Virus record (IMG/VR): IMGVR_UViG_3300013121_000034
Location: 65,024-129,023 of that record
Length of the DNA stretch: 64,000 nucleotides
Strand: one strand, 5' to 3'
From: a virus
Lineage: Duplodnaviria > Caudoviricetes
Shown here: positions 3,997 to 58,523 of the stretch, one piece after another
Layout of the letters: every line of letters starts with the position of its first letter
How positions within the stretch are numbered: the first letter of the stretch is position 1
Program-made: the position numbers and the translations under genes
The notes under the pieces: model-generated
What the model was told of the DNA's origin: nothing
The model's input: only the letters and a program-made list of their open reading frames with translations
Database searches by the model: none

Positions 3997-6900
3997 CTAC
4001 AGCACGCCTTTTATTGGCGTCAACTGAGATAGTCGATCACGCGTGTAGCTTATCATAGCGCGGTAAATGACGCGCCACTCTTTCTTATGCAGCTTGCGCT
4101 TGAACGTTAAATCTTCCTCGAATCGATCACGCAAATAATCAAGGCACATGGCCTCGCCGCCCTTCGATACGATCATATCGATGGCGCGGCTCATATCAGC
4201 CTTGGCTAGTGCCTCGCTTTCATAGCGCGACACGATGCTGTTATACCGCTGCGCAATCTTTTGTGCGAAGGCGTTTGAGAATTTGCGATACATGACCGAG
4301 AAATCGCGCGGCGCTATCGCAGCATCGAACGTGGTTATGTTTTTCAACTGGATCGGTGCAGTCGAAATTGGCGTGCCTTGGATAATACCCCACGACTGGC
4401 ACTGCTTCTTTGTGAGCGGGAAATTACCTAGCGTGCGCGTGTCATAGAACTTGCGCAAGATAGGCTTGCCTGTGTCCCAATTCACTGCGCCTGCCGTCAC
4501 TTTGATCGACGCGCCCATTCCCATGAAGCCGAGAGACGTGCGCTGAATAGCGCGGCGCGCTTTTCGAATATCAACACGCGTGCCGTTCTGGCGCGCAATC
4601 AACGCCATGACGTTTTGAATTTCAAGGTCGAGTTGGCGAGGCGTGATGACGCCGACGTATTTGTAAATCAGGAAGCGCCTGAACGCGCCTGATATAAAAG
4701 TGCGCTTGTTCCAGCCGATAGGCGTGCGGAACAGCTTGCCACGTGTGCGCACGGTCAACACGACCATATACGGCGAGCGAATCTTTTCCCCAATCCAAAA
4801 CGCAGTCGGTGTAGACGCTATGGTCATTCGTGCGCGTTCGCCGGAATGACCCGACTTAGCACGCGCACCGGAAATGCGATCACCGTAAATGTGTTTCAGT
4901 TTCGGGAATTTCTTTTTCACAATTGCTAGAAGCTGACGCACTCCCGTCGCGCCTAGCTTATGTTGTGCCGCTCCGAAAATGTTGACCTTGGCGTATTCCT
5001 TAGACCCATCAACAAATTTGATAGCCAACTCAGCTTCTTTTTGTCCGTCGATCAGAATTGAATACATGTGCAACACGTAGCGGCCATCTTGCATATTGCG
5101 GCCACGTTCAATGCCGTTCGACTCCAGCTTGATATTCAAACCAAGCTTGGCTACTGCCATATTCTTTTTCGTGTTCTCGCGAACGAGCGCCGCCGCCTTC
5201 GAGCCTTCAAACGATTTGAAGAATTTCGATTCCTTGATCGCGTCGCCTCTATCGCCCCATTGTTTTATGTCCAGCACGTCGATGTGGTAGCCGTCAGGGA
5301 AATCGTCTTTGATGATTTGCAGCAGCACGTTAGCCGCTCGGCGCGCAATACCGTCCTTCTTAAAATCGACGTTGAAGGAATTGTTGTCCTGATCGAGCGC
5401 CGAGCAGCGAACCCATCCCAAAACATTCGTCGCGTAGAAACGAGCAATCAGCTTGCGCTTGGGATCGCTTTCGGAAAATTCCTCGCCTGTGAACGTCTTG
5501 TAGAAGGGATGAAAGCCGTCATCGTTCTTTAGCGCGGCATACGCAACGCTGGTATGCGTGTTGTCCTCGCCAACCGGCAATTCACGGCCTTCGTGCGTAA
5601 TCCACATGTCCATTGACGTGCGCGTTTTGTATGACGCGATGGCCTCTGTTACACGCGGAAACGTTTTCAAATGCTGGAGTGTTTCGTGCTTGTCCGTAGA
5701 CGAGAAAAAGTGTTCGTCTGTGCGCCCGCTCAAATCGTCTACGAGATAACGTTCGCGTGTTTTATCTGCGGGGCGGAAACGCTGCAACACGCGTGCTGCC
5801 ATCGTTACAGCCGCACGTGTCGGGAAGCTTTTATGCATTGCGAAATCAATTTCGCTTGGCATCATTATGACACGCACCCATCCCAAACGACGATAGGCGT
5901 AACCCATCGTTGCGTCTTTGACAGTGTTCGGCTGCGCCATTTCCATGTCGCGGTAATGATATTCTTTTTTGAACCATGCTTGGAAATCAGCGTCGTCTTT
6001 GAAACGCGTGACGCAATAATCCAAGTGCATAGTGTGTCCAAGGTCGATCAGCTTACCGTTTTCGTCGATCCAGTAACCGCCGATAGAGCCTGCTGTTTCC
6101 TCCAAACCTTTCGATGGCTGTGTGCGCGCTTTTTGAAGCAACTCAACTGCCAAATGGCGCTTGTCGCGCGACAATTTCGCGGCGCGGATATTCGATATGT
6201 CCAGCGGAAGACGCTGCACAACGTCCAAATTCACGAACTCAAGATCGGTGCCAATCTCCGCCATAAGGCGAATGCATGCGTTGACCGCGCGGCCAGATAG
6301 CGCACCATTTAAGAACATGAAAGACAGCGACGCATCGCCATATTCATCATAACGAGCGCGCACCCATCCGTCCTTGATAGCACGCTCCACCGTCAAGCCT
6401 ACACGGCTGATATATGTGCGGTGTGAGTCTGACGCCTTGAGCGTGTGCTTTTTGCCGTCGGGCGCTATCCAGTATTTTTCCTCGGCGTAGGACGCAGCTT
6501 TCGCTTCGTGCTTGGCGACGTTATTTTGCAGCACCGAAAACAGCCGCGATTTCTCATGCGGTTCAAATTTGCCGCCGACGTTACGCAGGATATTCTTTTC
6601 GTGGTAGGTAACGTCGAGATAGGTGTCCTCTTGAGTGTCACGCAGTTGGCGAACAAGTGTGCGATACGCTTTGAGGCTCAAACGATCCTTCGAAATTTCG
6701 ATTGCGTTGCGATGCGTGTTGCGCACGCGGACCCATCCACGATGCAACAGATAATCGACGGTGCTGGAATATTGCTGATCCTCAAATTCTTTTTTGTCCG
6801 CAGGGTGCTTGGCAATCCAATCGGCTGCGAAATCCATATGGTCTTCGTCGATCCAATGGATTTTGCCATCGGCGTCGATGAAGCAGTTGTTATTCGTATC

Positions 6901-9900
6901 CCAAATGGATGCGTCCGACGCAAAAAGTTCAAGCTGACCCTTTGGAGTCGCCTTGCGCCCGCGATAGCGCGCCAGAATTTCCTCGAATACGTTGCCTGCC
7001 GCTTTCAACGCACCGGGAATTTCGCCCTCGCGATGGCCCAACATGAATGCAAGGCGCACTCTTTTTAGCACCTTGAAGCGATTAGCCTTGTTCAGCTTGT
7101 ATTTCTTGGCGAACGGCTCAAGCTTATCGCGGTAGAAACCATCCCACGTATTAAACAACGCCTTGTGCTTTTCGAAATACAGCGGACGGACGATCTGCTC
7201 ATTTTCGAAATCGTGAAAGCCTTCGATGTAACGCAGCGTGATTTCGTCCAGCGACGCATGCACGACTGCACCTTTGATATTGTGCGCTATCTGCTGCATG
7301 GCTTCGCGACGCGTAAACTTTTTCGTAGGCACCGCCGTATCAGCGCCCCACGGATGATTTTTGTCTACAACGGCCACGTAATAGGCGATCGGATTTTCGG
7401 GATCGTCGCGGCGTTGCGACAACGCACGAATGAGTTTCATCGCCGCAGGCTTGGCGATTTCTTTTTGCGCTACGTCGTATGCATTATCTGCGGCCATGCG
7501 AATCCAGCCGAGTTCGCGCATAGCGAACGCGGTATATGGATAGTATTCGCGGCCCTTATCGCTTTTGCGCCACGCCGCAAATTCTTTTTTGTGATCGCGT
7601 AGGATCAATTCGCGTGCGCGATGTTCGTGATCGTATTGCGCCGGATGGCCGACCCAAACGACTGCACCACCATGCAGCAACCAAAACCGCCCGTCATCGT
7701 CATCAATCCATGAATGCGAGACGTTGGCCGTGATTTGTTTTTTAGCCACGTTCTTTCTTAGCACAACGTTCAACTCGTATAGCGAGTTGGCGCGTGCGTA
7801 ATCATGCTCAAAACCTTTTGCGTCCGGTTGTTCGGATATAATTTCTACGACAGCTTTGTCAAAACCGTTGTCCTTGAAAATAGAAGCAAGGGCGCTAGCT
7901 TGTGTCGACGTTAAGCCGCCTTTGGGAATGGAAATGGACAAAGAGTTACGATCAGTTGCAAAATAACGGTTGATAGTGCGTGCGTAACCGTAGGCCGTTT
8001 GCAAGGCTTCGGTCGGATATTCTTTATAGAGAGAAGGTGCGTTCAAGCGTGAACGAATCACAGCACTGGCGAGATACCAATGTTTTTCAAAGTCGACGTT
8101 TTCAATTTTTCCGTTCGGACTGATCCAATAGCCGTAAGGCATTTGGCCTTCCGCTTGGGCGGTTTCCTCGTTCTTTTTGAACTCTGGAATGCCTTTGCGA
8201 TTATACTGTGCGCGCATCAGCTTTTTGCGCTCGTCGCTATTCCGCCATGTGAACTCAAAATGCTTGTCGTCAATGTTGATTTCGGTCGTTTTGAAACCGC
8301 CGCCGCCTGATCGGAACAAACGCTCCAACGTTTCGAGTGCTTTATGCGACGCGCGATTATTCGCCATGTCGATAGTGGCGCGCCTGTGGTAGTCGGGCGA
8401 ATGTGTGTCGACGTCTTCGTTGCCGCTCGCTTCGTCGTGACCGCGCGGCAACGTCAAGCGAATCCAGCCGCGCTTGCGCATCAGAAATGCAGATAATCCG
8501 TCGTGGTCTTTTGCGTCGGCGAACTTTTGGATTTCAGCATCGTTCGGAAATTGCTGGGCGACAGTGTTGACATAGCCTTTCTTGCTAACGATACCAATGT
8601 AATCGCCACTATCAGTAATCCAAGCACCGTAATATCCATCCAAGTCAAATAGCTTCTTTGACGCTTCCCACGACTCGCGCTCGGCTTTATCTTTTGCATC
8701 GAGAATCTTACTCCACTTGACGTTCAAGCCTTGCAGCATTTCCTTAAGCGTCTTGAAACCGTGCTTTTTCATTTCCGCAACCAACGCGTCGATGGTCTTG
8801 CGAATTTGAGAGTTCGGCTCCGAGTTGGCATTATGGATTGCCGCTTCAAGGCTCGCAACGACGTCGGCTGTCAGATGACCGTAAGCAGGATCAGCGCGAC
8901 GCACCCAATCATACCAAACTTTTTTCGCATGCTTATCAAGCTGCGAATATTTATCGACCTTGAACAACTGAATGAGGCCATGAATACGCACGCCGTCATA
9001 ACTCTTGCGGCGATCAGAGCCGCGATAGACGTAAGCGTCGCGAATTTCAGGACGTAGCGCCTTATAGGCGTCGAGCAAATACGACAGCGGCTTGGCGCGC
9101 AATTTGTTTTGCACCAAGAAGCTCTTTTTGTCGGCGTATATGAAAACGGGAATACGTTTGGCTTTGCACAGACGCACAAGCTTAAGCAGCCTTTCGGTTG
9201 CCTTGGGATATGTCTTTTCGTTTATGGATTTTTGCTCAGCTAGGATATGCACGCCATCAATAAGTTCTTTTGCGTTCGCCGGAATCTTCAAGCCTTCCGG
9301 CGTGTTGGACGTAATGCGTTCCTCGGCTTCGTCGTTGAATTGCGTTTTGCCGACGTTGCCACGATCCTGCCAATACGAAACAGGGTAAATCTTGAACCGC
9401 TTCGCGATGGTGCGACGGTTCAAGTTGAACATGACGTAGTAGTGCGCGGAGTTTGCGACGGCAAACGAATTGAGTTTCGAGCGCGTGAGGCTCAAAAAGT
9501 ACGAGTTGGGAACGTTTTGATCGGAGCGCGTGCCGACGATAGGGCGAAATTTGAACTCGCCTTGCTCCAAAATCGTGAGAGCGCGGTCAGGATACGTCGA
9601 GTGATAGAGAATGTAATCGTTTACGCTCGCGGTTTCGACGCGCTCTGTTTCATTGAAGGCTCGTACGCTAGGGTTCGCTACGTTGTTTCGCATCAACGAG
9701 GTCACGAAACTTTTTTGTGACGCGTCGTAAATATGACCCGCCGTATCCATCGGAATATCGACGTGTCCTTCGTCTGTGAAATCTACGATGTACTCGTTGG
9801 CCTCTTGCTTAACAAACCAACGCAAAAAAGTGCTGGCCGCGCGCGGTGCGACGCGTTTAGCGGCGGCTTGAACAACGAGCGACTCACCGTAAGAAATAGC

Positions 9901-10383
9901 AGCCGTACGAATCCAGCCCAATTGCATTATGACATAGCGAAAAGCTACGAGTTCGGGACGATTGTTCTCTTTCGCGCGCGCATCTTTTTCTTCTGTCCTT
10001 TGCGCGAGGTAAGCCTCAAACGCCTTGTCGCCATGCAATTCAGTCAAAGCAACATGGGCGTGCGTGTACCAATTGCGAATTGGAATAACGCGACCGTCAT
10101 GCGTGAACCACATGTCAGTCAAAATGCGGTTATGGAATTTGAACGCGGCAACCGTAGGCCGCTTGGGACGCTTGCGCTCGAAAAAGAGCGGTACAGCGGC
10201 GCGAATAGCTGCAATAATTTCGTCGGCGGTTTTACCAGCCTTCCACGCAGCAATGGTTGCTTCACGGCATTTTTGCGTGACCATTTCGCATTCAAAAACC
10301 TTATCGCTTTTACGAAAGCGAGGTTCAATTTCGCTCGCGTAAAACTCGCGAAAGACCTTGGCAACTTTGTCTTGTGTCAGCAT
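3997..10383 (-). CDS. large modular protein (~2128 aa), putative head-packaged polyprotein with an ADP-ribosyltransferase-like domain and 8 repeats of a W-x-x-x-D-G...H...G-W-x-R domain
   Basis: ATG 10383 follows the upstream stop at 10388 (the track starts at TTG 10434); repeated motifs and Ala-ending linkers are visible in the translation; LYHST...FLSLTRS...DEAEER motif. Confidence 0.75.
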   Translation of the reverse strand: MLTQDKVAKVFREFYASEIEPRFRKSDKVFECEMVTQKCREATIAAWKAGKTADEIIAAIRAAVPLFFERKRPKRPTVAAFKFHNRILTDMWFTHDGRVIPIRNWYTHAHVALTELHGDKAFEAYLAQRTEEKDARAKENNRPELVAFRYVIMQLGWIRTAAISYGESLVVQAAAKRVAPRAASTFLRWFVKQEANEYIVDFTDEGHVDIPMDTAGHIYDASQKSFVTSLMRNNVANPSVRAFNETERVETASVNDYILYHSTYPDRALTILEQGEFKFRPIVGTRSDQNVPNSYFLSLTRSKLNSFAVANSAHYYVMFNLNRRTIAKRFKIYPVSYWQDRGNVGKTQFNDEAEERITSNTPEGLKIPANAKELIDGVHILAEQKSINEKTYPKATERLLKLVRLCKAKRIPVFIYADKKSFLVQNKLRAKPLSYLLDAYKALRPEIRDAYVYRGSDRRKSYDGVRIHGLIQLFKVDKYSQLDKHAKKVWYDWVRRADPAYGHLTADVVASLEAAIHNANSEPNSQIRKTIDALVAEMKKHGFKTLKEMLQGLNVKWSKILDAKDKAERESWEASKKLFDLDGYYGAWITDSGDYIGIVSKKGYVNTVAQQFPNDAEIQKFADAKDHDGLSAFLMRKRGWIRLTLPRGHDEASGNEDVDTHSPDYHRRATIDMANNRASHKALETLERLFRSGGGGFKTTEINIDDKHFEFTWRNSDERKKLMRAQYNRKGIPEFKKNEETAQAEGQMPYGYWISPNGKIENVDFEKHWYLASAVIRSRLNAPSLYKEYPTEALQTAYGYARTINRYFATDRNSLSISIPKGGLTSTQASALASIFKDNGFDKAVVEIISEQPDAKGFEHDYARANSLYELNVVLRKNVAKKQITANVSHSWIDDDDGRFWLLHGGAVVWVGHPAQYDHEHRARELILRDHKKEFAAWRKSDKGREYYPYTAFAMRELGWIRMAADNAYDVAQKEIAKPAAMKLIRALSQRRDDPENPIAYYVAVVDKNHPWGADTAVPTKKFTRREAMQQIAHNIKGAVVHASLDEITLRYIEGFHDFENEQIVRPLYFEKHKALFNTWDGFYRDKLEPFAKKYKLNKANRFKVLKRVRLAFMLGHREGEIPGALKAAGNVFEEILARYRGRKATPKGQLELFASDASIWDTNNNCFIDADGKIHWIDEDHMDFAADWIAKHPADKKEFEDQQYSSTVDYLLHRGWVRVRNTHRNAIEISKDRLSLKAYRTLVRQLRDTQEDTYLDVTYHEKNILRNVGGKFEPHEKSRLFSVLQNNVAKHEAKAASYAEEKYWIAPDGKKHTLKASDSHRTYISRVGLTVERAIKDGWVRARYDEYGDASLSFMFLNGALSGRAVNACIRLMAEIGTDLEFVNLDVVQRLPLDISNIRAAKLSRDKRHLAVELLQKARTQPSKGLEETAGSIGGYWIDENGKLIDLGHTMHLDYCVTRFKDDADFQAWFKKEYHYRDMEMAQPNTVKDATMGYAYRRLGWVRVIMMPSEIDFAMHKSFPTRAAVTMAARVLQRFRPADKTRERYLVDDLSGRTDEHFFSSTDKHETLQHLKTFPRVTEAIASYKTRTSMDMWITHEGRELPVGEDNTHTSVAYAALKNDDGFHPFYKTFTGEEFSESDPKRKLIARFYATNVLGWVRCSALDQDNNSFNVDFKKDGIARRAANVLLQIIKDDFPDGYHIDVLDIKQWGDRGDAIKESKFFKSFEGSKAAALVRENTKKNMAVAKLGLNIKLESNGIERGRNMQDGRYVLHMYSILIDGQKEAELAIKFVDGSKEYAKVNIFGAAQHKLGATGVRQLLAIVKKKFPKLKHIYGDRISGARAKSGHSGERARMTIASTPTAFWIGEKIRSPYMVVLTVRTRGKLFRTPIGWNKRTFISGAFRRFLIYKYVGVITPRQLDLEIQNVMALIARQNGTRVDIRKARRAIQRTSLGFMGMGASIKVTAGAVNWDTGKPILRKFYDTRTLGNFPLTKKQCQSWGIIQGTPISTAPIQLKNITTFDAAIAPRDFSVMYRKFSNAFAQKIAQRYNSIVSRYESEALAKADMSRAIDMIVSKGGEAMCLDYLRDRFEEDLTFKRKLHKKEWRVIYRAMISYTRDRLSQLTPIKGVL

Positions 10384-10387
10384 TGTT

Positions 10388-10708
10388 TCACTTGTATCGC
10401 GGATCGTTGACGCAGTGCTCTGCCAGTATTTCAAAGTATGCTTTGGCGTTTTGAATGTTGGTCATATGACCGCGCCATTGCGCGGTAGCTTCACGCAATT
10501 TACTAGGATCGTGTTGGTAGTCGCGTCCATTGGGCGCGGTCTTTTTAAGCATTTCTAGTGCATCGTCTAATGTTGTCAACGCGTCCATATAATCTTTGGC
10601 TAGAGAACGCGCAGACGATCCGTTTATATGAATTTGCGGTGTAACGACCTTGGATGGGTCGAAATCGTTAGCCGTTACTTTTTGAACGTAGGCTTCAATG
10701 CGGTTCAT
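10388..10708 (-). CDS. hypothetical protein with N-terminal KVTA|N leader (possible internal head protein)
   Basis: 106 aa, tightly packed between PAAR and the large modular gene. Confidence 0.7.
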   Translation of the reverse strand: MNRIEAYVQKVTANDFDPSKVVTPQIHINGSSARSLAKDYMDALTTLDDALEMLKKTAPNGRDYQHDPSKLREATAQWRGHMTNIQNAKAYFEILAEHCVNDPRYK

Positions 10709-10714
10709 TTTTGA

Positions 10715-10966
10715 TTACCCGATATTCACGTTGCCGGAACCAGTTGCGATAACGCTACCGCAATTGCCGATAATGCTATCGCCTTGGCGGGCAGCAGCGT
10801 TGCCGTTGATAAAGACCGTGGTGGAGCCGCCGAAAACAGTGCCGTGACCGCCGTACAAATCAGTTTTACGCAGAGCACCGTTTCCGTTGATGCTTACGTT
10901 CGAAGACGACGTTGTCGGCAAATTGCCGTGCGTACATGGCGAGTTACTTTTTGCAGCGGCTCCCAT
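10715..10966 (-). CDS. PAAR-motif spike tip protein
   Basis: SSNVSING...GSTTVFINGNAAARQGD...CGSVIATGSGNVNIG. Confidence 0.92.
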   Translation of the reverse strand: MGAAAKSNSPCTHGNLPTTSSSNVSINGNGALRKTDLYGGHGTVFGGSTTVFINGNAAARQGDSIIGNCGSVIATGSGNVNIG

Positions 10967-15402: not shown

Positions 15403-18400
15403 TTAAAAGACCTTCCTGATCGGAATTGAGAAATTCACAGTGCATCCATTCCAAGCCGTAACGGCCTGAATAAAGAGCGTTTGCGATGCGGATTTGCTGA
15501 ATATGCGCTTCACGATGTTGGCGTCCGTAATATGGATCAAATCGTTAGCTGCGACCGCTTGCGCCACAACGACTTGCGTGCCGCCGTTCGTCGTGCCGAT
15601 TTTGACGCCGCCTGTCACGGCGGCTGCCGTCGTGTTATCAACAAAGATGTTGCCATAAACGGCGAAACCAGCAGGCACCGACACAGTTGTGTTTGCGTTG
15701 GCGGCTGTCGCCGTGAGCAAATAACTGTCGCCAGAAAGTTCGTCCGTGACGCCACGCTCAAAACGCGGCGCAGCGAAAATGGCATACTGCGCATTATTGA
15801 GCGTCGTCGACCAAACAACTTGGCAACGATAGCGCGCCCATACGGCATCGCTTGGTGCCGTGATGCGCGTGTCGAGGCTGGCCGTAGTATCTGCGCCCGC
15901 CGCGACATTGCGGTAATCGGAACCGATAGTAAAAGTATCCGAAGCCGTTGAGGCGGAAGTCGATTTATCCTGTTTGAGCCAACTGATGATGATGCGGATA
16001 AGACCAGTAAATCCGCTCTTAACGAATGCACGTGCAGCAACGCGAAGCGGCTTGCCCGGCTCAATCCACACATACGAATCAGTTGCCGTTTGACTCGTTT
16101 CGCTATTGCCTTGCGATGTGGTGCCGTTGCCAGTGACGGTTTTTGCGCCGGACGGAACGTTAAGCGTCGTTGTGCAATCGGTCGACGTGTCGAGCGTCCA
16201 GCCGGAACCGAACGTCCAGTAAGTCGAATCCGTATAAAGCGGATCAGCGATGTAGTTGTTGAAATCTTTAATGACATGTTTGCTGGCCGTAATAGCGAGC
16301 GCGGCAATTTGTGTGGCCGTGATCGTGCCGTTTACAAGGTTCGATCCCGTAATGGTCGTCGCTGCGATTTTGCCGCCAGTAATTGTCGTGTTCGCGATTT
16401 CAGTGGCAGTGATCGTGCTGGCCGTAATATTGGCTGCTGTGATCGTCGTATTCGCGATCTTTCCACCCGTGATGGTGGAGTTTGCGATATTGCCTGCAAC
16501 GATGGTCGTTGCCGCAATTTCGGTTGTTGTAATCGTCGCCGCTTGGATTTGCGTCGCCGTAATCGTGTTATTGACCAGCTTACCGCCGGTAATGGTTGTG
16601 TTCGCTATCTGCGTTGCGGTGATCGTCGAACTTACTATGTTGCCTGCGGCAATTGTCGTTGCAGCAATGTCCGATCCGGTAATTGTGCCGTTCGTTATTT
16701 CAGCCGACGTGATCGTTCCAGCGACAATGTTCGCCGGAATCGTCATTGAAATAACCTCGGCATCGCTTACACGTTCAAGAGCGCACCGATTGAAAATAAT
16801 CGTCGCCGCGCCAGCCGTTGAACCGAACGTACTCCAATGCGCCATTGCATATAGCGTTACGCTACGAACGGTAGATGTTGTTACCTGAAAAGTTTTCGCA
16901 AATTGATAACGCCGACCGACGGTGCCTGCGCCGTGTACGGTGCCTGCAATATCAGCATCTGTAGCAAAGTTTATGGACCAAGACTCTTGAACCGTACCCA
17001 AACCAGTCAGACGCCATTGTGTCAAAATACCAGCGGCGGTCAAAGAACCGGCACCCAACGTAATATCGCCAACGATTCTGTACCAGCCCGGATACATAGG
17101 AGCCGCTCCGGCGGTATCGGTCAGGTGTTGCAATATGCCGACGTTGGCTGCGGCTGCGGCTGCTGCGATTTGAGCGGCGTACTTTGAAACGCATCCGGTT
17201 ACGCGCGTCGTATTAGCCGCGCCTGCTGACCAATCTGCCCATCCCGTCGGAATGCCGGATGCGACCAAATTGCCTTGAAAGTTTGCCTCTAGGTTATATG
17301 CGTTGTCGACGCCTTTATAATCGGCGCTTGTCAAAATCGATGTGCTGACCTCGGCGGACGTAATAGTGCCCGCTGCAATATTAGCAGCGGTGATCGTGTT
17401 ATTTGCAATCTTTCCGCCAGTGATGGTGCTATTTGCAATTTCCGTTGCAGTAATCGTAGCAGCGGCAATTTGCGTGGCAGTGACGGTGTTATTCACCATC
17501 TTTGCACCAGTGATCGTCGTATTGGCGATCTGCGTTGCAGTGATGGTGCTTGAAACGATGTTGCCTGCGGCAATTGTAGTTGCTGCTATATTTGATCCCG
17601 TGATAGTGCTGGCGGCGATTTGTGTCGTTGTGATCGTGCCAGAAACGATATTACCTGCTGCGATTGTAGTTGCTGCGATATTCGATCCGGCTATCGTTGC
17701 CGCAGCAATTTGTGTCGTCGTTATGGTCGCGTTCACCAGCTTGCCGCCAGTGATCGTTGTGTTGGCAATGTTGCCCGCCACGATTGTCAAAGAAGCGATT
17801 TCGGTTGTCGTTATGGTAGCGGCGTTGATCTGCGTCGCGGTGACGGTGTTATTCACCATCTTTGCGCCGGTTATGGTGGTATTTGCTATCTGCGTCGCAG
17901 TGATCGTAGACGAGACGATGTTGCCTGCTGCGACGGTCGTATTAGCGATCTTTGCGCCGGTCACGTTGGCGTTCAAGATTTTGATGGTCGTTATAGCGTC
18001 AGAGGCGATTTCTGTCGCAGTGATAGTACCGCCAACGATATTGGATGCCGTAATCGTCGAACCCGAAATTTTTGCGCCGGTAATGGTCGAGTTGATGATG
18101 TTACTAGCCGCAATAGTCGTACCAGCAATGTTTGATCCCGTGATCGTAGCCGACGCTATCGACCCTCCGGTTAGGGTACCGGGGAAAATTCTGTCGTCGT
18201 AAATGGATGCTGGCGCTATTTTTGGACCAACGATAGAGTCGCTACGGATCAACGCCTCATCGAGCATGGGCCTAAAAGAAGGCTTAGTGTAAATGATATA
18301 CTGCGCGTTATTTTGCGTGCTGGACCAGTCGATACGCAAACTGAAACGTCCGTAAACCGCAGTGGACGGTGCTTGGATGATTACGAGAAAAGCGTTCGCC

Positions 18401-21400
18401 GTGCTGGCTCCAGCATAGGCTGTTGTTCGATAGTCGTTGAAACTTGGATCGAATATAGTCGTGGTACTTACTTGCGTGGATTTATCGGCTTTGTACCATA
18501 TAACTTGAGCACCTGCCCGGCCAGTGAAACCGGATTTCAAAAAGTATTCAACGGCAACGCGGAAATAAGCACCGCCGTCTACAGGGAACCAGTTGCTAGA
18601 GGCCCCGATACTTGACGTATTTGCGGCTTGCGACGTTGTGCCGTTACCGACCGGCGTTTTCAAGCCGCGTACTGCGCCCATGCCTGCGGGTGGATCAACC
18701 GTGACCTCGGTACTTGTATCGGTCGCCCATCCTGAACCCAAACTCCAGTAATCAGGAACGTCTGAAAATTCAGGATCGAGAATGTAGTTGTTTCCACCTA
18801 TCGCAACAATTCGCGATGCTGTAATAGCACCAACGGCAAGTTCTGTCGCGGTAATTGATCCTGCTGCAATGTTCGCAGCCGTGATAGTGCCCGCTGCAAT
18901 TTGCGTGGCGGTAATCGTACCGGCTGCAATTTGGCTTGCAGTAATCGTGTTGGCAGCGATCTTTGCCGCTGTAATCGTAGTGGCGGCAATTTCGGTTGCG
19001 GTGATTGTCGATGCCGCAATTTGCGATGCAGTGATCGTGTTCGCCACGATCTTTGCGGCAGTGATCGTCGTTGCAGCGATCTGCGTAGCCGTTATGGTAG
19101 AGGCGGCAATGTTGCCAGCAACAATAGTCGTCGCAGCGATCTGAGTCGTCGTTATCGTTCCTGCGACGATATTTCCCGCCGCGATTGTCGTCGCAGCAAT
19201 TTGCGTTCCGGTTATGGTGCCTGATACGATGTTGCCCGCAACAATGGTTGTTGCGGCAATTTGTGTCGTCGTTATTGTACCGGCAACAATGTTATTGGCA
19301 GCCACGGTTGTGGCTGCGATCTTTGTGCCGGTGATAGTTCCGTTAACAATCAATTCGGCGCTCGTTGCGCGATTTATACGCGGTTGACCCATCAACGCAT
19401 ATTGTGCGTTGTTGAGAGTTGTAGACCAAGCAACTTGCGTATAGTAACGCGCAAAATAGGCGTCACTCGGCGCAACGAATATAGCATCTATGTATTGAAC
19501 GCCATCGCCGCCAGATTTAGCTACTGTACGATAATCCGTACCGTACTGCCAACTGAAAGCAGTTGAGGCTGCCGTAGTACCGTCAGATTTATACCAGTTT
19601 ATAATTACACCGACGATTCCAGTGAAGCCGTTCTTTATAAGGATTTTGGAAGCGGCTCGGTATGATTTACCTGCTTCAACCGGAGAGTATTGACCGACTG
19701 CAATAACGGTCAAATTCGAAGTTGCCTGCGAGGTCGTACCGTTGCCGACAGGCGTTTTTACCGTCCGTACCAGTCCAAGCGTTGTCGTGGTTTCTGCTGT
19801 TGTGTCGTAGGTGCCTGATGTCAAAGTCCAGTATGTAGAATCTGCGAAATCAACGTCAGCCAAAAGATTGGAACTATCGCTGAGAATAATTCGAGACGCG
19901 GAAATCGTATTGACTGCAATTTCGGTCGCTGTGATAGTGCCTGCTGCAATTTGAGAAGCTGTAATTGTATTAGCTGCAATTTGAGCCGCCGTTATTGTAT
20001 TCGCTGCAATCTTTGCGGCGGTTATGGTGGTAGCAGCAATTTGCGTAGCAGTTATGGTAGACGCTGCAATGTTTCCTGCAACGATGGTTGTTGCGGCAAT
20101 TTGTGTCGTCGTTATGGTGCCTGCAACAATGTTTGCGGCGGCAATTGTCGTTGCCGCGATTTGCGTTCCGGTGATTGTTCCGCTTACGATATTGCCAGCG
20201 GTTATGGTGGTCGCTGCAATTTGAGTAGCAGTAATCGTCGCACTTTGAATCTGAGTGGCCGTTATCGTTGCATTGACGATGTTCGCGCCGGTTATGGTCG
20301 TATTCGCAATAAGACCGCCTGTTATTGTCGCGTTTGAAATTTGCGTTCCGGTGATCGTACCATTGACGATGTTCGATGCCGTAATCGTAGTGCCAGCGAT
20401 CTTTCCTCCGGTGATCGTGCTGTTAGCAATTTCCGTTGCAGTAATCGTGCCGCCGGTGATATTTGATGCAGTGATCGTGGCGTTTGCGATTTTGCCGCCC
20501 GTCACCGCGCCGTCTTCAAATGTGATCGTGTCGAGCAAACGGCGAACGCGGACGTCATCGAAATACACATCGGCTGTTGAGGCCGTCCAGTTGGCAACTG
20601 AAAAAGTAACATACTGAACGCCAGCCGGAACCGTGTAACTACCGCTGTAATACGTCCACGATGAAGGAATCGCACTATTAACAGTTACAAGGTCCGTAAA
20701 TGACGTGCGCAAATCAACGCCAGTCAGAGAATTTGATGTTTCGCCGACAAAGTTTGTTGACGGTTTAGACGTCAACTCGTGCATGCGGATATAAAGACCG
20801 TTCGTCGATGCGGCAGAGCCTTTAATCCAAATGCTCCACGCTAGAATCCATCCAGCTTTTACACCGAATGCTCGTGCTCCGTAAAACGTACCATGCGTCG
20901 AGTTGTCGGTGATCTTAAATGACGCAGCACCATTATTCTGCTGCGTTGTGTCACGCGTCAAAACGAGAGACGTTGTCGTCGCGCGTTGAACCGCACGCCA
21001 TCCGGCAATATTCGCTTCGGCATCTGGATTGCGTATTAAGTTTGCGCCGTAATCGGCAATCGTCAATTGATCGACGGTGATGCTATCAGCCGCTATTTCG
21101 CTTGCCGTTATGGTGCCTGCTGCTATATTCGATGCGGTAATGGTGCCAGCGGCGATGCTAGCGCCGGTGATTGTGCCGCCAAGAATATTGGAGTCGGTTA
21201 TGGTGCCGCCCGCAATGTTCGCACCCGTAATAGTCGCGTTCGCGATCTTTCCGCCCGTGATCGTGCTATTCGCAATTTCGCTGGCAGTTATCGTGCTACC
21301 TTGAATGTTGGAAGCGGTGATCGTGGTGCCAGCAATTTTGCCGCCGGTGATGGTCGAGTTCGCGATGTTCGATCCAGTAATCGTGGACGCAGCAATTTCC

Positions 21401-51088: not shown

Positions 51089-51988
51089 TTACGCCGCCGT
51101 TCGCTTTCCTTTCGCGAGGAAGTCGGATGCCTTCTTTCGCGATTCATCGTCGCCGAAAATGCTCATTTTGTTCGCGACAGCGCGCTGCACACTCGCGGAC
51201 ATAGTTGGGAAGCGTGTGCCTCCCATGCCTTCTTTTTTCTGTTGCGGCAGAGGATCGGGCTCGTCACCGTCATCATCTGCGTCGTCGGACGCGGTGATTT
51301 CCGAATCATCGTCTTCGTCATCGCCGATTTCATCGACGCCGTCATCATCGTCTTCACCGCTCGAAAACGCATCATTCGCGTCATCGTCGGAATTAAGATC
51401 GTCGCCGGTATCATCACCGTCGATAACCGAATCGATAATTTCGTCGTCGCTTTCCTCACCGCCCTCGCCGTCGTCTTCACCGTCGCCAAGCATATCGTCG
51501 CCGCCATCGTCTTCGGCGTCAATATCCACGGCTTCGGATTCGTCGTCGCCAATTTCATCGCCGTCGTCTTCCGGCGCAATGTCATCGTCTTCGTCACCGC
51601 TTGCGGCGAGCAAAGCGCGATCACGCTGCTGTTCGAAATTATCCGCCGACTCATTGGCGTGCGTGAGAGCGTCCGCAAGGCTTTCCATATCGTCCTGCTC
51701 AAAAGCCTGCAAAACGAATTGGAGCGCGTTGCGCTTATCGCCTTGGGTGTAAACGGCATAAGCCGTCGCAATCAAATCACCCGATGCGATGTAAGGAATT
51801 TCAACAGCCGAGGCCGTGGCTTCGAGAGAAACCTTTTTGCCCTCAGCAAAAGAGGCAACAACCGAACGCAACGTGTCGCGAACGAGGGTCGGGCTGATTT
51901 GTAGTTTTGCAGCCGCAAAAGCTTCAATCAAAGGCTCCGCAGCTTCGACAGCCGCAGCTTGAAGCAAATGCTTTATACGCTTGTTCAT
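51089..51988 (-). CDS. acidic head-associated protein
   Basis: GAGGG Shine-Dalgarno; ~100-aa D/E tract; follows the major capsid gene. Confidence 0.7.
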   Translation of the reverse strand: MNKRIKHLLQAAAVEAAEPLIEAFAAAKLQISPTLVRDTLRSVVASFAEGKKVSLEATASAVEIPYIASGDLIATAYAVYTQGDKRNALQFVLQAFEQDDMESLADALTHANESADNFEQQRDRALLAASGDEDDDIAPEDDGDEIGDDESEAVDIDAEDDGGDDMLGDGEDDGEGGEESDDEIIDSVIDGDDTGDDLNSDDDANDAFSSGEDDDDGVDEIGDDEDDDSEITASDDADDDGDEPDPLPQQKKEGMGGTRFPTMSASVQRAVANKMSIFGDDESRKKASDFLAKGKRTAA

Positions 51989-54002: not shown

Positions 54003-55667
54003 TTAGCCGCCCATGCGCGTTGTGCGGCGACCAATCATGCTGGTGACGACGCCTTTGGCAGTCAGGCCGTTTTGATTCGGCGCGTTATGCGACGACGCCG
54101 TTTCAAAAGGCTTATCGGTGCCGAGCGCCGCCACAGTAATAGGAGCAGGAGTCGGAGCCGATTCTTTTTCGTCGTCGCTGCTGGCAGGAGCAGCGGTTTT
54201 CTCGACGATGTTCGAAATGTCGTTCAGGCTTTCATCGGATTTCAGCACGTAGTCGCGCGCCAATCCGAGAACGGTGGAGAGTTCTTCCTCGCCGTGCTTT
54301 TCGTAAATGCTGTCGACAGTGGCAGCCGCATTGCGGAAACCATGCTGCTTGAGCATCTGAATAAACGCAGCGCGCACCGGCGATTTCACGCCGCCAATTC
54401 CTTTGCGAACGGCGAGCGATGCAATCGACATGCATGTTTTGAAGCGATTCGAAACCGCCGTAATATCGCCTGCGGTCGTAGCAGTGCGAGCAGCGACTTC
54501 TTTTTCGATATGCTGCTTCGTCGCTTCATCAGTGGGAACGTCGACGATGGTCGGCTCAAAACCAAAATCGGCGAGTTTCTGTTCCGGCGTCGAAGGATCG
54601 TTCGCGTCGGGCGCGGCAGCGAGCGCAGTCGAAAGCGCGGCGTGATAACGCGTGCGATCATTGAACAGCGCAGCAATTTCCGGCTTGGCGCGCGCTTTAT
54701 CAGCACGAGCGCACGGCACGCCGTTCGCAAACATGTGATAACGCGTGTCGCCATTTTCGAGCGTGTTGGCGACAAATTCGATTTCGGGATTTTCGTCGAG
54801 CGAAGAAAGAACCATTTTCAGTGCATTGGCCTGAATGGTATTTTCCGCAGGAGCCGTTTCGCCCTCACCTTCGGGTTTTTCCTCGGGAGCGGGAGCAGCC
54901 TCGTCTTCGCCTTCCTTCTTTTCAGGAGTCGGCGCATCGGCGGGCGGTTCATCGCCGGGAATATCGGAAGCAATTGCTTCATCGCCAGCGTCGTCTTCGT
55001 CGGAATCGTCGCCTTCATCGGCGTCCGCAGCGGCGTCGTCGCTTTCGGCCATATCATCGGCGGGAATTTCACCGTCGTCATCGCCAGAAAGTTCGCCGTC
55101 GCCTTCATCGTCGCCGGTATCAAAATCGGAATCGTCGCCAGCGGTAACGCTCGCGTCGTCTTCGGCATCGCCCTCGCCTTCGCCGTCCGATTCCTCAGTG
55201 AAACCGTCGTCGTCCGCGTTATCGAAAGGATCGGTCGCGCCCATGCCTTCATCGGCGGGCGTATCGGCTTCGTCGTCATCACCCATTTCGGCGGTGATTT
55301 TCAGACCCTCGCCACACACGACGCAATTGGCCGTAATGCCCTTGACGTGCGAGAGGCATTCTTTTGTGGAAACGAATTCGGTTTTGCACGAACGGCAAAA
55401 TGCCGCGACAGGCATATTCTGCAATTCAGGGCGTTTCAGCGTGAGCGTGTCGGCGCTCTTTTTCGGAGCCATAATGCCATCACAAGTGGGGCACGACGGC
55501 GTATTGATGTTGTTGATCGTGGCGGTCGTTTTGCACGACGGGCAATCGTGCTGGCGAATAACGATGCCGCTTTTTCCAGCCTGCTGACCATCGATGCTGC
55601 GACCGACGAGAACGATATTGGGCCTTGCCATGCCCGCAATCGCCGTCAAAAGACGCGTTCTTTTCAT
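54003..55667 (-). CDS. putative prohead scaffold/core protein with zinc ribbons and acidic linker
   Basis: Four CxxC pairs, a long D/E tract, position between protease and capsid genes. Confidence 0.65.
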   Translation of the reverse strand: MKRTRLLTAIAGMARPNIVLVGRSIDGQQAGKSGIVIRQHDCPSCKTTATINNINTPSCPTCDGIMAPKKSADTLTLKRPELQNMPVAAFCRSCKTEFVSTKECLSHVKGITANCVVCGEGLKITAEMGDDDEADTPADEGMGATDPFDNADDDGFTEESDGEGEGDAEDDASVTAGDDSDFDTGDDEGDGELSGDDDGEIPADDMAESDDAAADADEGDDSDEDDAGDEAIASDIPGDEPPADAPTPEKKEGEDEAAPAPEEKPEGEGETAPAENTIQANALKMVLSSLDENPEIEFVANTLENGDTRYHMFANGVPCARADKARAKPEIAALFNDRTRYHAALSTALAAAPDANDPSTPEQKLADFGFEPTIVDVPTDEATKQHIEKEVAARTATTAGDITAVSNRFKTCMSIASLAVRKGIGGVKSPVRAAFIQMLKQHGFRNAAATVDSIYEKHGEEELSTVLGLARDYVLKSDESLNDISNIVEKTAAPASSDDEKESAPTPAPITVAALGTDKPFETASSHNAPNQNGLTAKGVVTSMIGRRTTRMGG

Positions 55668-55779: not shown

Positions 55780-56598
55780 CTAGTGACAGGCTCCTCCTGA
55801 ATTTCCGTTGTAGCCTAGCTTAACCGCTTCGTATTTTTTGATGTAACGTCGTTCCAGATTAGCCAACTTACTAATAGAGTTGGCTTTGGCTATAGCGTGT
55901 ATGGAAAAGTTTTCACTCCCCAATTGGCGTATAGCCTTGCTTAGTTTCGTCCTAGAATTATTTCGCGCAGCATGTAAATGCAGGCTAAACCGTTGTTTGA
56001 GTTTTTGTGTCGTCAAACCAACGTAAACTTTATTATTGATAGAGTTTGTTATTTTGTAAACGACTCCTTGCCTATTTTTAGGCAAACGGCGTTTCGAAAG
56101 TTCTAAGGCTTCTTCGATGGGCCATCCACGCCCGATTCTGTTCGTGACCGTAAGCGGCTCTAATCCGTAGAAACGTGCAGCGGCACTTATAGATGGAAAT
56201 GTTTTGTCTTTGACACGAACTTTTCCAGGAACAGACTCACGTAGCAGCGCGGGTAGCAGAGGATCAATTCCTCTACGACACCTACTAGCAAACAAATGTC
56301 TGTCTATGCCGTAATGATCCGCAGCCTCGTTCCATGATAGAAAAAGAACGCCTTCTAACACTATGCGTTTGGCACCGGCCTTGTTTGCATTGTTCTTGCG
56401 TAGCTCCGCATTATGCACGCGCCTAGACTTCAATACAACTTTATCGTTATCTTTTCCATATTTATGGACTCTATCGACGAACGTTGAATAAGGTATGTCG
56501 AAATGCTGAGCAGCCTCAGTCATGCTTTCAAAATTTTTGCCTTTTAGGGTTAGCATGTCGTTACGGTTCGTTACTGGACCGGCACCTTTTCGTCCCAC
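55780..56598 (-). mobile_element. free-standing GIY-YIG homing endonuclease with three N-terminal HTH-like repeats
   Basis: GVVYKITNSINNKVYVGLT...R...H...LER...GYN; repeated F-x-S-x-x-x-AA-x-x-Y/F; visibly AT-richer than the flanks. Confidence 0.88.
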
Positions 56599-58523
56599 AT
56601 GCGCGTATAATTCTGCGTCTGTGCGGACAAATACGCAGGCGAAATAACGCTCGACGTCTCGAAGCCAATAAAGTTTCGAGCGTTCAAATACGCCAAATTG
56701 CCGTCATACACCGCGAAAGCCGGGCGGCGCAGAGAAACGTGATTGCACGGAGATTCAGGATGACGCGCACCGCAAATGCTGCACGTGTAATAAGAACACA
56801 TCGCGCCCATCGAATAGGCTGTGCGCTGGCGCGTCAAAATCTGATTGGCGAGAAGCGAATCGCGCGTGCGATCAAATGCCAGCAACGACACGACCTTGTG
56901 CAGATTGCCTTTTGCATTTCGGATCGGCTTCAAAAACGTTCCAAGGATAATGCCCTTGGAGTCTTTGTTGTAATCCTTATTACAGTTGTGAACCGCAACA
57001 CCGTAAGCGACGTATGAATGTTCATTTTCGACTTCGAAGTTGTAAACGTCTTCAAAGCGCGCTTTGTGTTGAATTTCAACCACAGGTGCTAGAATATAAT
57101 TACCTTTGATAAACATCTTGGCGTTGTTGCCATTCGACCCGTCGTTATCGACAGGATGCATGTCAGATTTTCCGACCGTGTATTTTGAAAGAATATGCGC
57201 TTGGTCTTCTAGCGCCGTAACAGAGTAGGAACCCTTGCTACGCACAGTCCGCTCTACGTTATATTTAGGGCACATATAGGTGTACGTTTTTTGATGCCCG
57301 TCCTTATTTACGCTAGAGCATATACCTATAAACGCAAGTGCCTGCTGAACGTCGATAGCCAACTTTTTAGATGCTGTACGACAACGCATACGCTTGACGT
57401 TCGATGCGCCATATTGTGCCACAGAACCGTCGCCGGAAATATATCCGCCAAGGAAGTGCTTCATGGCTTTCTTATTCCATTGGCGAAGATCGCCTCTCAT
57501 GGATTTTTTATGCGCGTATTCGCCGGTAAGCGAAAGCATGGTAGCCGTAAACGCCTTATCGGCAATGCGAATAAGCCGCGTATTATTCTTTTTATGAATA
57601 TACTCGCCGTAAGGTAATCCAAGGGCATCGCATGCAGCAAAAATACGATTTCGCAATTGCATTTCAACGTAACCGATAGTTAGTTGAACACTGGTATATG
57701 TTCCGTTCTTTTTCTCGTAGCAACCCGCGGCCATATGAACGCCCGTTAGGAAGGCAAGATGCTTATCTACGTCTAGATCGCCACCAATACGAATTGGGCT
57801 ACAAACGTAATCACCAATGTTCATATCTGATACAGGACGAAAATGCGGTTTAAGATTGTCCCATTCTATATTATTCATCCTGCCATAAAAACCAAACCCC
57901 TTTTTACTACGCGTATTGCTATTGGGAATTGTTTGTGAATAAAGCTGGCGCGGGTCTACGATCCAGTAAGGGTGGTTTTCCGTAGCAAAGCTGTCGTCAG
58001 CCATTCCCAGAACTTTAATACGGGAAAGCCATTTCTTGCCGTTTTTAAAGACAGCAGTAACGCGTTCGACGGTTCCTTGATGTGTGAAGACAGAGTCGCC
58101 AACGCGAACTCTCTTAATACGCTTGGTCCCATTAGGGATTGCAATGGGAGCATCACCGGGGAAGCAATGATCGACCGCCGTGATTTTGTTCGTCCACGAC
58201 TGGAAGCCAAGTCGGCCCGTCTCAGGATTAGGGCGCAAAAGTTCTTCGAGCGGAAATGCCACGCAATTGCGGTTCGGCAAATCCGACGGCATGATGATCG
58301 TCGAAACGAGAATGTAGTCGTTCAGCTTCGGCGAAATGTCGTAGAGTTCAGCGAACAGAGGCAACGACGCTTGGCTTTCAACGAGCGCGCCGCGCACGTC
58401 GTCCAAAATACCCGCCGTTACGAAATGTTCTTTTTGTTCCTCTTTCTGAAATGCCTCGACCGGATGATACGAGCGCATGGCATCGGCGTGAATTTCGTGG
58501 GGGCGTCCGTGATAATCGAGCAT
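56571..58523 (-). CDS. prohead maturation protease (HK97/assemblin clan) interrupted by an intein
   Basis: PNRN...DH...G...YSMGA...FETSSVISPAY; ATG 58523 chosen; spliced product is 256 aa. Confidence 0.8.
   Translation of the reverse strand: MLDYHGRPHEIHADAMRSYHPVEAFQKEEQKEHFVTAGILDDVRGALVESQASLPLFAELYDISPKLNDYILVSTIIMPSDLPNRNCVAFPLEELLRPNPETGRLGFQSWTNKITAVDHCFPGDAPIAIPNGTKRIKRVRVGDSVFTHQGTVERVTAVFKNGKKWLSRIKVLGMADDSFATENHPYWIVDPRQLYSQTIPNSNTRSKKGFGFYGRMNNIEWDNLKPHFRPVSDMNIGDYVCSPIRIGGDLDVDKHLAFLTGVHMAAGCYEKKNGTYTSVQLTIGYVEMQLRNRIFAACDALGLPYGEYIHKKNNTRLIRIADKAFTATMLSLTGEYAHKKSMRGDLRQWNKKAMKHFLGGYISGDGSVAQYGASNVKRMRCRTASKKLAIDVQQALAFIGICSSVNKDGHQKTYTYMCPKYNVERTVRSKGSYSVTALEDQAHILSKYTVGKSDMHPVDNDGSNGNNAKMFIKGNYILAPVVEIQHKARFEDVYNFEVENEHSYVAYGVAVHNCNKDYNKDSKGIILGTFLKPIRNAKGNLHKVVSLLAFDRTRDSLLANQILTRQRTAYSMGAMCSYYTCSICGARHPESPCNHVSLRRPAFAVYDGNLAYLNARNFIGFETSSVISPAYLSAQTQNYTRMWDEKVPVQ
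56985..58166 (-). mobile_element. intein (394 aa) with LAGLIDADG-type endonuclease region
   Basis: DH|CFPGDAPI start, ATENHPYW block B, VYNFEVENEHSYVAYGVAVHN|C end, GYISGDG motif. Confidence 0.95.

Follow-up and report, generated by a model that had tools for sequence, protein, structure and literature searches.

A candidate head-cargo polyprotein with alanine junctions between its modules in a probable jumbo phage

The polyvalent proteins described by Iyer, Burroughs, Anand, de Souza and Aravind in 2017 join many disparate domains in one polypeptide, are encoded among virion genes, and, by prediction, are packaged in the virion and reach the host together with the phage DNA; their processing has been proposed to depend mainly on an embedded MPTase and occasionally on C-terminal assemblin-like domains (PMC5512222). 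In phage T4, the internal proteins IPI, IPII and IPIII and the ADP-ribosyltransferase (ART) Alt carry a short leader that ends in the motif of the protease gp21, and the cargo is freed in the head and injected; each is the product of a separate small gene and is cut once or twice. Proteases of the T4 type cut after Glu, and the properties of the T4 capsid targeting sequence used here are taken from the same source (PMC9026906). In the jumbo phages phiKZ, 201phi2-1 and SPN3US, head proteins are cut many times at redundant sites by the gp21-like gp175/gp245 (PMC9026906), again after Glu (S/A/G-x-E), and what these substrates shed are propeptides; they are not split into a row of domains of equal size. 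Herpesvirus assemblin cuts after Ala and before a small P1' residue, as at YLQA-T and VQA-S in pseudorabies virus (PMC4498786). Here we report on a 64,000-nucleotide stretch of viral DNA (positions 65,024 to 129,023 of IMG/VR record IMGVR_UViG_3300013121_000034; Caudoviricetes), referred to below as the window, and on one of its genes, which encodes a long chain of modules (P0001, the polyprotein). The polyprotein combines known kinds, namely polyvalent proteins and T4-style internal proteins processed by a protease, in a new form: about a dozen cargo units would lie in one gene, and the residue before the predicted cut is Ala. A preliminary description of the window had read the gene as a virion-packaged polyprotein of effector modules joined by Ala-specific protease sites; on comparative evidence, this observation was confirmed in part and its interpretation supported in part. 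We put at roughly 0.6 the probability that the chain is head cargo cut after Ala by the phage's own prohead protease, a reading suggested by sequence comparison.

The window makes up the final 64 kb of a 129-kb record. As CheckV rated that record 48% complete, the full genome probably measures roughly 270 kb, which would make the source a jumbo phage. The polyprotein gene lies at 3997..10383 on the minus strand and encodes 2128 amino acids (aa) from an ATG to a stop codon at 3997-3999, giving a protein of 244 kDa with an isoelectric point of 9.5. The open reading frame (ORF) extends from a TTG (3997..10434, minus strand), and the ATG at 10383 corresponds to the start of the homologue P0002; residue positions of sites and modules are given in the TTG numbering. 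That the ORF at 3997-10383 is real, as the preliminary description had taken it to be, is borne out by homologues at 68-98% identity, of which P0002 shares the Met start.

The chain appears to consist of about 12 independently folded modules, mostly copies of one repeated domain, which are joined by flexible linkers ending in x-[T/I/V/E]-A and a small residue. With at least five unrelated kinds of module, it falls within the 2-15 distinct domains per polypeptide of polyvalent proteins; eight modules are copies of the repeat, one has the ART fold, three are small and basic, and a conserved basic unit lies at the C-terminus. The count of about 14 effector modules first proposed does not hold, as eight modules are copies of one domain and the last two probably form one unit. 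All-against-all BLAST, alignment A1 and a hidden Markov model (HMM) showed M2, M4, M5, M6, M8, M9, M10 and M11 to be diverged paralogues with 13-30% identity. The repeat domain is about 140 aa long and has the signature W-I-x3-G...H...G-W-I/V-R, the conserved residues being W, G, H and G-W-x-R. In the following order of the modules, all on the minus strand, an arrow marks the proposed cut. The first 16 aa (10336..10383) end in F-Y-A↓S and are a candidate N-terminal leader on the evidence of their sequence; this site, 16 aa past the ATG, was absent from the preliminary description. M1 (10147..10335, aa 34-96) is small, basic and helical-looking, ends in PTVA↓A, and is 100% identical in P0002. 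M2 (9628..10146, aa 97-269) is repeat copy 1, with a repeat HMM E-value of 7.5e-53, and ends in VETA↓S. M3 (8662..9627, aa 270-591) has 322 aa, comprising an ART-fold part at about 270-444 and a helical half, and ends in SWEA↓S. The stretch from M4 to M11 (5149..8661) contains repeat copies 2-8, namely M4, M5, M6, M8, M9, M10 and M11, each matching the repeat HMM at E = 1e-29 to 1e-52, together with the non-repeat module M7 (6919-7254) between M6 and M8; its borders are EETA↓Q, QITA↓N, VVHA↓S, ELFA↓S, EAKA↓A, EETA↓G, EAIA↓S and AVA↓K. M12 (4816..5148, aa 1763-1873) is a basic non-repeat module ending in MTIA↓S, and M13 and M14 (4000..4815, aa 1874-2145) make up a very basic, conserved C-terminal unit. 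Net charge is +19 for M3, +11 for M12, +16 for M13 and +12 for M14, and is near neutral for the repeat copies. A strongly basic character is typical of DNA-associated internal proteins.

All 13 Ala-plus-small-residue strings listed at the outset were found, once each, within 3-4 residues of where they had been placed, with the P1 Ala at positions 96, 269, 591, 759, 903, 1060, 1172, 1313, 1448, 1600, 1762, 1873 and 1981. A strict regular expression for the motif matched the polyprotein 14 times where 4.3 matches were expected, and none of 300 residue shuffles reached 14. Using a position-specific scoring matrix (PSSM) built from 25 junctions of other proteins only, nine of the 13 sites were placed among the 20 best-scoring of the 216 Ala positions (hypergeometric p = 4e-8), and F-Y-A↓S of the candidate leader took rank 10; part of what the PSSM detects is the conserved C-terminal helix of the repeat, so that homology contributes to its signal. 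Repeat copies are bordered by eleven of the 13 sites, with the P1 Ala 7-15 aa ahead of the W anchor of the next copy. In an AlphaFold model of M11 and its flanks, made from a 48-sequence alignment (predicted local distance difference test, pLDDT, 82; predicted template modelling score 0.77), the confident core spans about aa 1609-1754, and the pLDDT is below 50 around EAIA↓S as well as around AVA↓K. VETA↓S likewise lies in the disordered N-terminal flank of the M3 model.

A likeness to the herpesvirus site (V/L/I)-x-A↓S had been drawn. Ala occupies P1 in 13 of 13 sites, by the selection of the preliminary description, and S, A or G follows in 10 of 13. The motif is looser than the herpesvirus one at P3, a position that has V, L, I, W or A in eight sites but E or T in five, and Ala specificity of the phage enzyme is predicted from sequence only. 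No sequence similarity to assemblin was found, no search having been aimed at it. Cleavage after Glu, with E-T-A read as E↓TA, was considered and rejected: the invariant residue is Ala, homologues have T instead of E at P2, and a Glu within four residues is lacking at six of the 13 junctions. The T4 arrangement, (L/I)-x-E cleavage by a Peptidase_S77 enzyme, is not that of this phage, as no match to Peptidase_S77 (PF03420) was found in this genome.

Close homologues differ from the polyprotein by whole modules, with breakpoints exactly at the motifs. The homologue P0002 (2454 aa, 68-76% identity) has an extra repeat after M2, flanked by NEIA↓G and VEIA↓S, and an extra module of about 290 aa after M5, flanked by QVTA↓G and DETA↓N, while its M12 is replaced by a repeat copy flanked by AVA↓A and VVVA↓A. 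P0003, which is 98% identical, lacks M9-M12, and M8 is joined straight to M13 through a 15-aa stretch with two motifs. A module homologous to M12 is found in P0044, flanked by IEAA↓E and VTA↓T, and P0005, P0015 and P0029 each end in M13 and M14 as a pair, with TTA↓A, LEA↓S or VEA↓S ahead of it. An x-x-A border is retained by the unrelated modules M3, M12 and M13 in P0005, P0015, P0029, P0044 and P0070. The distant relatives P0006, P0007, P0009 and P0010 divide into 135-155-aa pieces at [LIVMT]-[ET]-A↓[SAN] and start with leaders of 15-27 aa that end in the same type of motif; in P0007 an ART-PolyVal module is bounded by F-L-E-A↓S and L-L-T-A↓S. P2 is sometimes T and sometimes E whereas the Ala does not vary, which argues that Ala rather than Glu is the key residue.

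The prohead protease gene (56571..58523, minus strand) encodes a protein of the phrog_18299 type (E = 3.3e-56) and contains a LAGLIDADG intein at about 56985-58166 on the same strand, identified by Pfam intein and LAGLIDADG matches, which sits right after a conserved D-H with the presumed catalytic His. The portal gene (58691-62170, minus strand) is likewise interrupted by a LAGLIDADG intein. The two extein pieces of the protease match phrog_18299 at E = 6.7e-40 and 3.5e-18 and align with the proteases of Lu11, RSL1 and Yoloswag, with conserved D/E-H, S-M-G and C-x-x-C-G; they had no Pfam match and no sequence match in the PDB. HFVTA↓G is present 37 aa after the start of the protease, and the phrog_18299-type proteases of this phage, Lu11, RSL1 and Yoloswag share P-[AS]-[YWF]-x-x-A at the end of the domain, with a tail of 2-17 aa beyond it. 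This C-terminal string may be an autocleavage site, and its [YWF]-x-x-A at the edge of the domain recalls the assemblin release site YLQA-T (PMC4498786).

Across the proteins of this phage, the motif was enriched only in the polyprotein, in two acidic scaffold-like proteins, in the major capsid protein (MCP) and in a 106-aa ORF, setting aside the excess in a probable fibre of 6032 aa; the remaining proteins, about 100 in number, contained about 52 matches where about 50 were expected. The first scaffold-like protein (554 aa; 54003..55667, minus strand), which is syntenic with PaBG gp82, has 10 matches against 2.0 expected, and the second (299 aa; 51089-51988, minus strand) has 4 against 0.7. 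The MCP (52072-53166, minus strand; phrog_2522, E = 6e-64) has 4 against 1.2 expected and is about 35% identical to those of Lu11, PaBG, RSL1 and Yoloswag. The MCPs of this phage, PaBG, Lu11, RSL1, Yoloswag and Sen-NF share a string G-E-[IFL]-N-A-[SGY] at about aa 37-41. In the relative PaBG, the scaffold-like protein gp82 has the sites VEEATA↓S, REEATA↓S, DEEATA↓G and QEVTA↓S; when gp82 and gp79 are taken together, QLATA↓S joins the list. The MCP of PaBG is shortened by about 20% on maturation, and several of its virion proteins are present as multiple products of proteolysis (PMC7412058).

Within the repeat family the type of junction was found to follow the type of prohead protease. Junctions of the form [LIVM]-x-E occur in 13 family proteins, where 40 of 46 junctions are of this type only, and Ala junctions occur in 22, where 64 of 97 are Ala-only. 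Pfam Peptidase_S77 was found in all three sizeable records with Glu-type chains and phrog_18299 in none of them, and the smaller fragments with such chains had neither; phrog_18299 was found in all six records with Ala-type chains, and S77 in none. These six are the present genome and five records of an unrelated clade with x-K-x-A↓S junctions; the MCP of this phage was not detected in the other viral records. The protease ORF of this second Ala-type clade has S-K-Q-A↓S-L-T right after the protease domain, followed by a scaffold-like tail; the polyprotein family of the clade (P0047, P0060) has the same K-Q-A↓S at its junctions, with EKKA↓S and EKSA↓S also present in its loci. Two loci, L038 and L039 (G007 and G008), contain a phrog_18299-type domain fused to a long Lys/Glu-rich scaffold-like tail, with I-T-K-T-A-A↓S near the N-terminus, a layout like that of herpesvirus protease-scaffold precursors.

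It has been proposed by Iyer et al. that some polyvalent proteins are processed after delivery (PMC5512222), and a host protease or another phage protease might in the same way cut the chain in the cytoplasm or after injection, the pieces acting then. The distance between the polyprotein gene and the head genes would suit such a scheme, but the type of junction follows the family of the prohead protease, scans of the polyprotein against Pfam and PHROGs matched no peptidase domain, and a host protease would leave the enrichment of the motif in the scaffold-like proteins unexplained; we regard this explanation as improbable.

The reading that we favour can be set out as follows. The chain would be made late and incorporated into the prohead core. 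The phrog_18299-type protease (56571-58523), active once its intein is spliced, would cut after the Ala of each linker, and the same specificity would trim or degrade the acidic scaffold-like proteins, the N-terminus of the MCP and the protease's own ends. The released pieces of 12-37 kDa would remain beside the DNA inside the head until infection, when they would pass into the cell. We infer the packaging of the chain, its cleavage at Ala, its ejection and any anti-host role. Unlike usual polyvalent proteins, the polyprotein has no embedded peptidase but a regular linker motif that matches a stand-alone prohead protease, and it is mostly one repeated domain without a significant Pfam match. 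No sequence relation to the inner-body or ejection proteins of the phiKZ group was found.

Several points weigh against cleavage in the head by this protease. The motif is short and loose, and six more matches to the strict regular expression fall inside modules. The N-V-x-K before it is part of the last helix of the repeat, so that its conservation could partly reflect structure. The sites had been expected to lie outside folded domains, as EAIA↓S, AVA↓K and VETA↓S do in the AlphaFold models, but SWEA↓S (591) is within a long lone helix of the M3 model (pLDDT about 68-83). KVTA↓G (1981) is not conserved, homologues reading R-P-F-A-I-D-W-D-T-G-K there, and M13 and M14 travel together, which makes it doubtful that this site is a module border as first listed. 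The covariation of junction and protease rests on few independent clades, about two of the Ala type and about two of the Glu type. The polyprotein gene is 46 kb from the head genes and beside a PAAR gene. Searches of the literature found no N-terminal or semi-tryptic data for the RSL1/Lu11/PaBG clade and no measured specificity of phrog_18299-type proteases. Finally, some polyvalent proteins, such as the N4 vRNAP, are packaged unprocessed (PMC5512222).

This last case gives a model for a chain that stays uncut, or is trimmed at its ends, and is delivered as a multidomain polyvalent protein like beads on a string, the motif then being a feature of linkers or helix caps. The place of N-V-x-K in the last helix of the repeat would agree with this, and the cleavage proposed here comes from sequence comparison. 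A structural motif of the repeat would, however, not be expected also to border unrelated modules and to end short N-terminal leaders, nor to switch wholesale to [LIVM]-x-E in company with gp21-type proteases while the domain is unchanged. It would also have to account for the enrichment in the scaffold-like proteins of the head module and for the motif that, in the second Ala-type clade, directly follows the protease domain of the ORFs for protease and scaffold. We consider an uncut chain, the main rival to our reading, unlikely.

The polyprotein gene is the last of a minus-strand myovirus late block and, like the genes of polyvalent proteins, it has virion and packaging genes as its neighbourhood. 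The block runs from the portal gene through the prohead protease gene, both with inteins, to the genes for the two acidic scaffold-like proteins and the MCP, and continues with sheath, baseplate, the 6032-aa protein, endolysin, a spanin-like protein, PAAR, the 106-aa ORF and the polyprotein. The 106-aa ORF (10388..10708, minus strand), directly upstream of the polyprotein gene, has a 13-aa leader ending in KVTA↓N and 2 motif matches where 0.25 was expected; it had no family match. The 6032-aa ORF (15403-33501, minus strand) contains CBM_4_9 domains and regions of pentapeptide and decapeptide repeats, and is probably a giant fibre. It was considered as a second polyprotein and rejected, as its motif excess (199 against 74) is probably due to the pentapeptide repeats. 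An ORF of 272 aa (55780-56598, minus strand) between the protease gene and a scaffold-like gene contains V-Y-K-I-T-N...K-V-Y-V-G-L-T, which we take to resemble a GIY-YIG homing endonuclease.

The PAAR gene (10715-10966) is two genes upstream of the polyprotein gene, which ends a block of tail, fibre and lysis genes. It could be supposed from this, by analogy with PAAR/VgrG-linked effectors, that the chain is tail-associated cargo, held in the lumen of the tube or on the spike with PAAR. The polyprotein matched no tail-protein family in Pfam or PHROGs, and the logic of leader plus motif fits internal proteins targeted to the head. In a 347-kb relative, moreover, an array of paralogues is found between head-tail adaptor and neck genes, and a tail location would be very improbable. 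This array (L007, 7479-17014, plus strand; IMGVR_UViG_3300020202_000061, 347.5 kb) has seven consecutive genes whose products start with M-R-L-L-[DEQ]-[LF]-L-x-E, among them those for a 708-aa ART-PolyVal protein and five repeat-domain proteins; its flanking genes encode the head-tail adaptor and a T4 gp15-like sheath stabiliser, and the phage is of the gp21 type. Inner junctions of the array use the x-E motif of the leader ends. Because the seven leaders and the inner junctions share x-E, the end of the leader and the junction motif are the same in this phage. The leaders of gp21-type family members are T4-like, as in M-F-T-F-K-Q-F-L-V-E↓A and M-R-L-L-D-L-L-x-E↓, and those of L007 presumably resemble the T4 capsid targeting sequence. 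By this analogy, the array appears to be T4 capsid-targeting logic extended into chains.

The first 175 residues or so of M3 adopt an ART fold in the AlphaFold model (pLDDT 76). A Foldseek search with M3 gave only ART folds among its top matches, including DarT (7omw) at E = 1.5e-3 with probability 1.0, and the top 50 matches of a VIA search were also all ART folds, with Z 10.4 for DarT (7yk3_A, 148 aa at 3.6 Å) and Z 10.2 for Tpt1 (7yw4). Y-H-x-T, F-x-S-x-x-R and E-x-E-E are invariant. On its modelled fold and NAD-site motifs, M3 is a predicted member of the ADP-ribosyltransferase superfamily. Homologues of M3 were found in the phages SCTP-2, Lu11 and Dickeya JA11; a word-indexed homologue search with M3 returned P0012 only, and a search of the ESM Atlas returned unnamed clusters only. 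Comparison of M3 with ART-PolyVal by hhalign was not significant, and BLASTP of M3 against P0007 found nothing. Relatives of the chain that match Pfam ART-PolyVal (PF18760) are P0041 (E = 1e-56), P0007, P0006 and one L007 gene, and domains resembling 2H/Acb1 also occur in chain relatives. Because relatives carry these domains, the repeat family belongs, as far as sequence can place it, among the polyvalent proteins of Iyer et al. (PMC5512222). Given the ART fold of M3 together with the ART-PolyVal and 2H/Acb1-like domains of its relatives, the reading of modules as effectors is therefore reasonable for part of the chain.

Nothing above the curated Pfam and PHROGs thresholds was found for the whole protein or for M1, M3, M7, M12 and M13-14, and no Pfam hallmark polyvalent family was matched at threshold by P0001 or its modules. 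Sub-threshold matches in these scans were DUF4859 (E = 0.004) and phrog_1615 (E = 4e-4). Weak matches to DUF4859 cover the start of the repeat domain at aa 1405-1468 of P0001, 1126-1177 of P0006 and 611-655 of P0007, at E = 4e-3 to 1e-6; that of P0001 scores 17.6 bits, below the cut-off of 22.6, which those of P0006 (28.8) and P0007 (25.9) exceed. The repeat domain and DUF4859 may be distantly related. No convincing fold match to the repeat domain was obtained (best Foldseek E = 0.1; best Z in a wide VIA search 5.3).

A search with the repeat profile found 198 proteins at E < 1e-3 among 1.84 billion representatives. Many of them are chains with 4-9 copies, reaching 2500 aa in length, and many others are 120-160 aa long and have a single domain. 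An open frame of 2051 aa in L020 (761-6913, plus strand) has 12 tandem repeat copies, each after [LIVM]-x-E. The repeat family was not found in any cultured phage: tblastn of P0007, P0014 and P0102 against phages gave no match, the repeat profile was not found in PaBG, Lu11, RSL1, Yoloswag or Sen-NF, and megablast of the polyprotein gene against 50,697 phage records gave no match. Scans of viral contigs with P0001, P0014, P0007, P0041 and P0020 and of genome contigs with alignment A5 were also without a match.

As a wider and more tentative suggestion, on which we lean towards doubt, jumbo phages of several lineages may use a general code for cargo cassettes, in which any motif-flanked domain behind one short leader is loaded into the head as part of a polyprotein and then released as a separate protein, the motif being x-x-A↓S with phrog_18299-type proteases and hydrophobic-x-E↓ with gp21-type proteases, and the repeat being an injected anti-defence binder or inhibitor. 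If so, the junctions of such chains would report the specificity of uncharacterised prohead proteases, one phage protease family would have a herpesvirus-like Ala specificity, and the W-I-x3-G/G-W-I-R repeat would form a family that diversifies and whose members, once injected, bind or inhibit components of host defences.

The polyprotein strategy is familiar from RNA viruses; to our knowledge it has not been described for the cargo of tailed phages. The T4 capsid targeting sequence has already been used for loading foreign proteins into heads. If the linkers of the chain described here are real protease sites, polyvalent phage proteins would work as true polyproteins, and a dozen cargo proteins in stoichiometric amounts would be delivered from one gene with one leader. 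Junction motifs would then be a readout of prohead protease specificity obtained from sequence, and an Ala-specific protease family that recalls herpesvirus assemblin would be predicted in jumbo phages of the Lu11/RSL1/PaBG type. The logic of leader plus linker would be usable for loading foreign proteins into heads of this kind, and a widespread new domain, with 198 cluster representatives and up to 12 copies per protein, would join the class of injected cargo.

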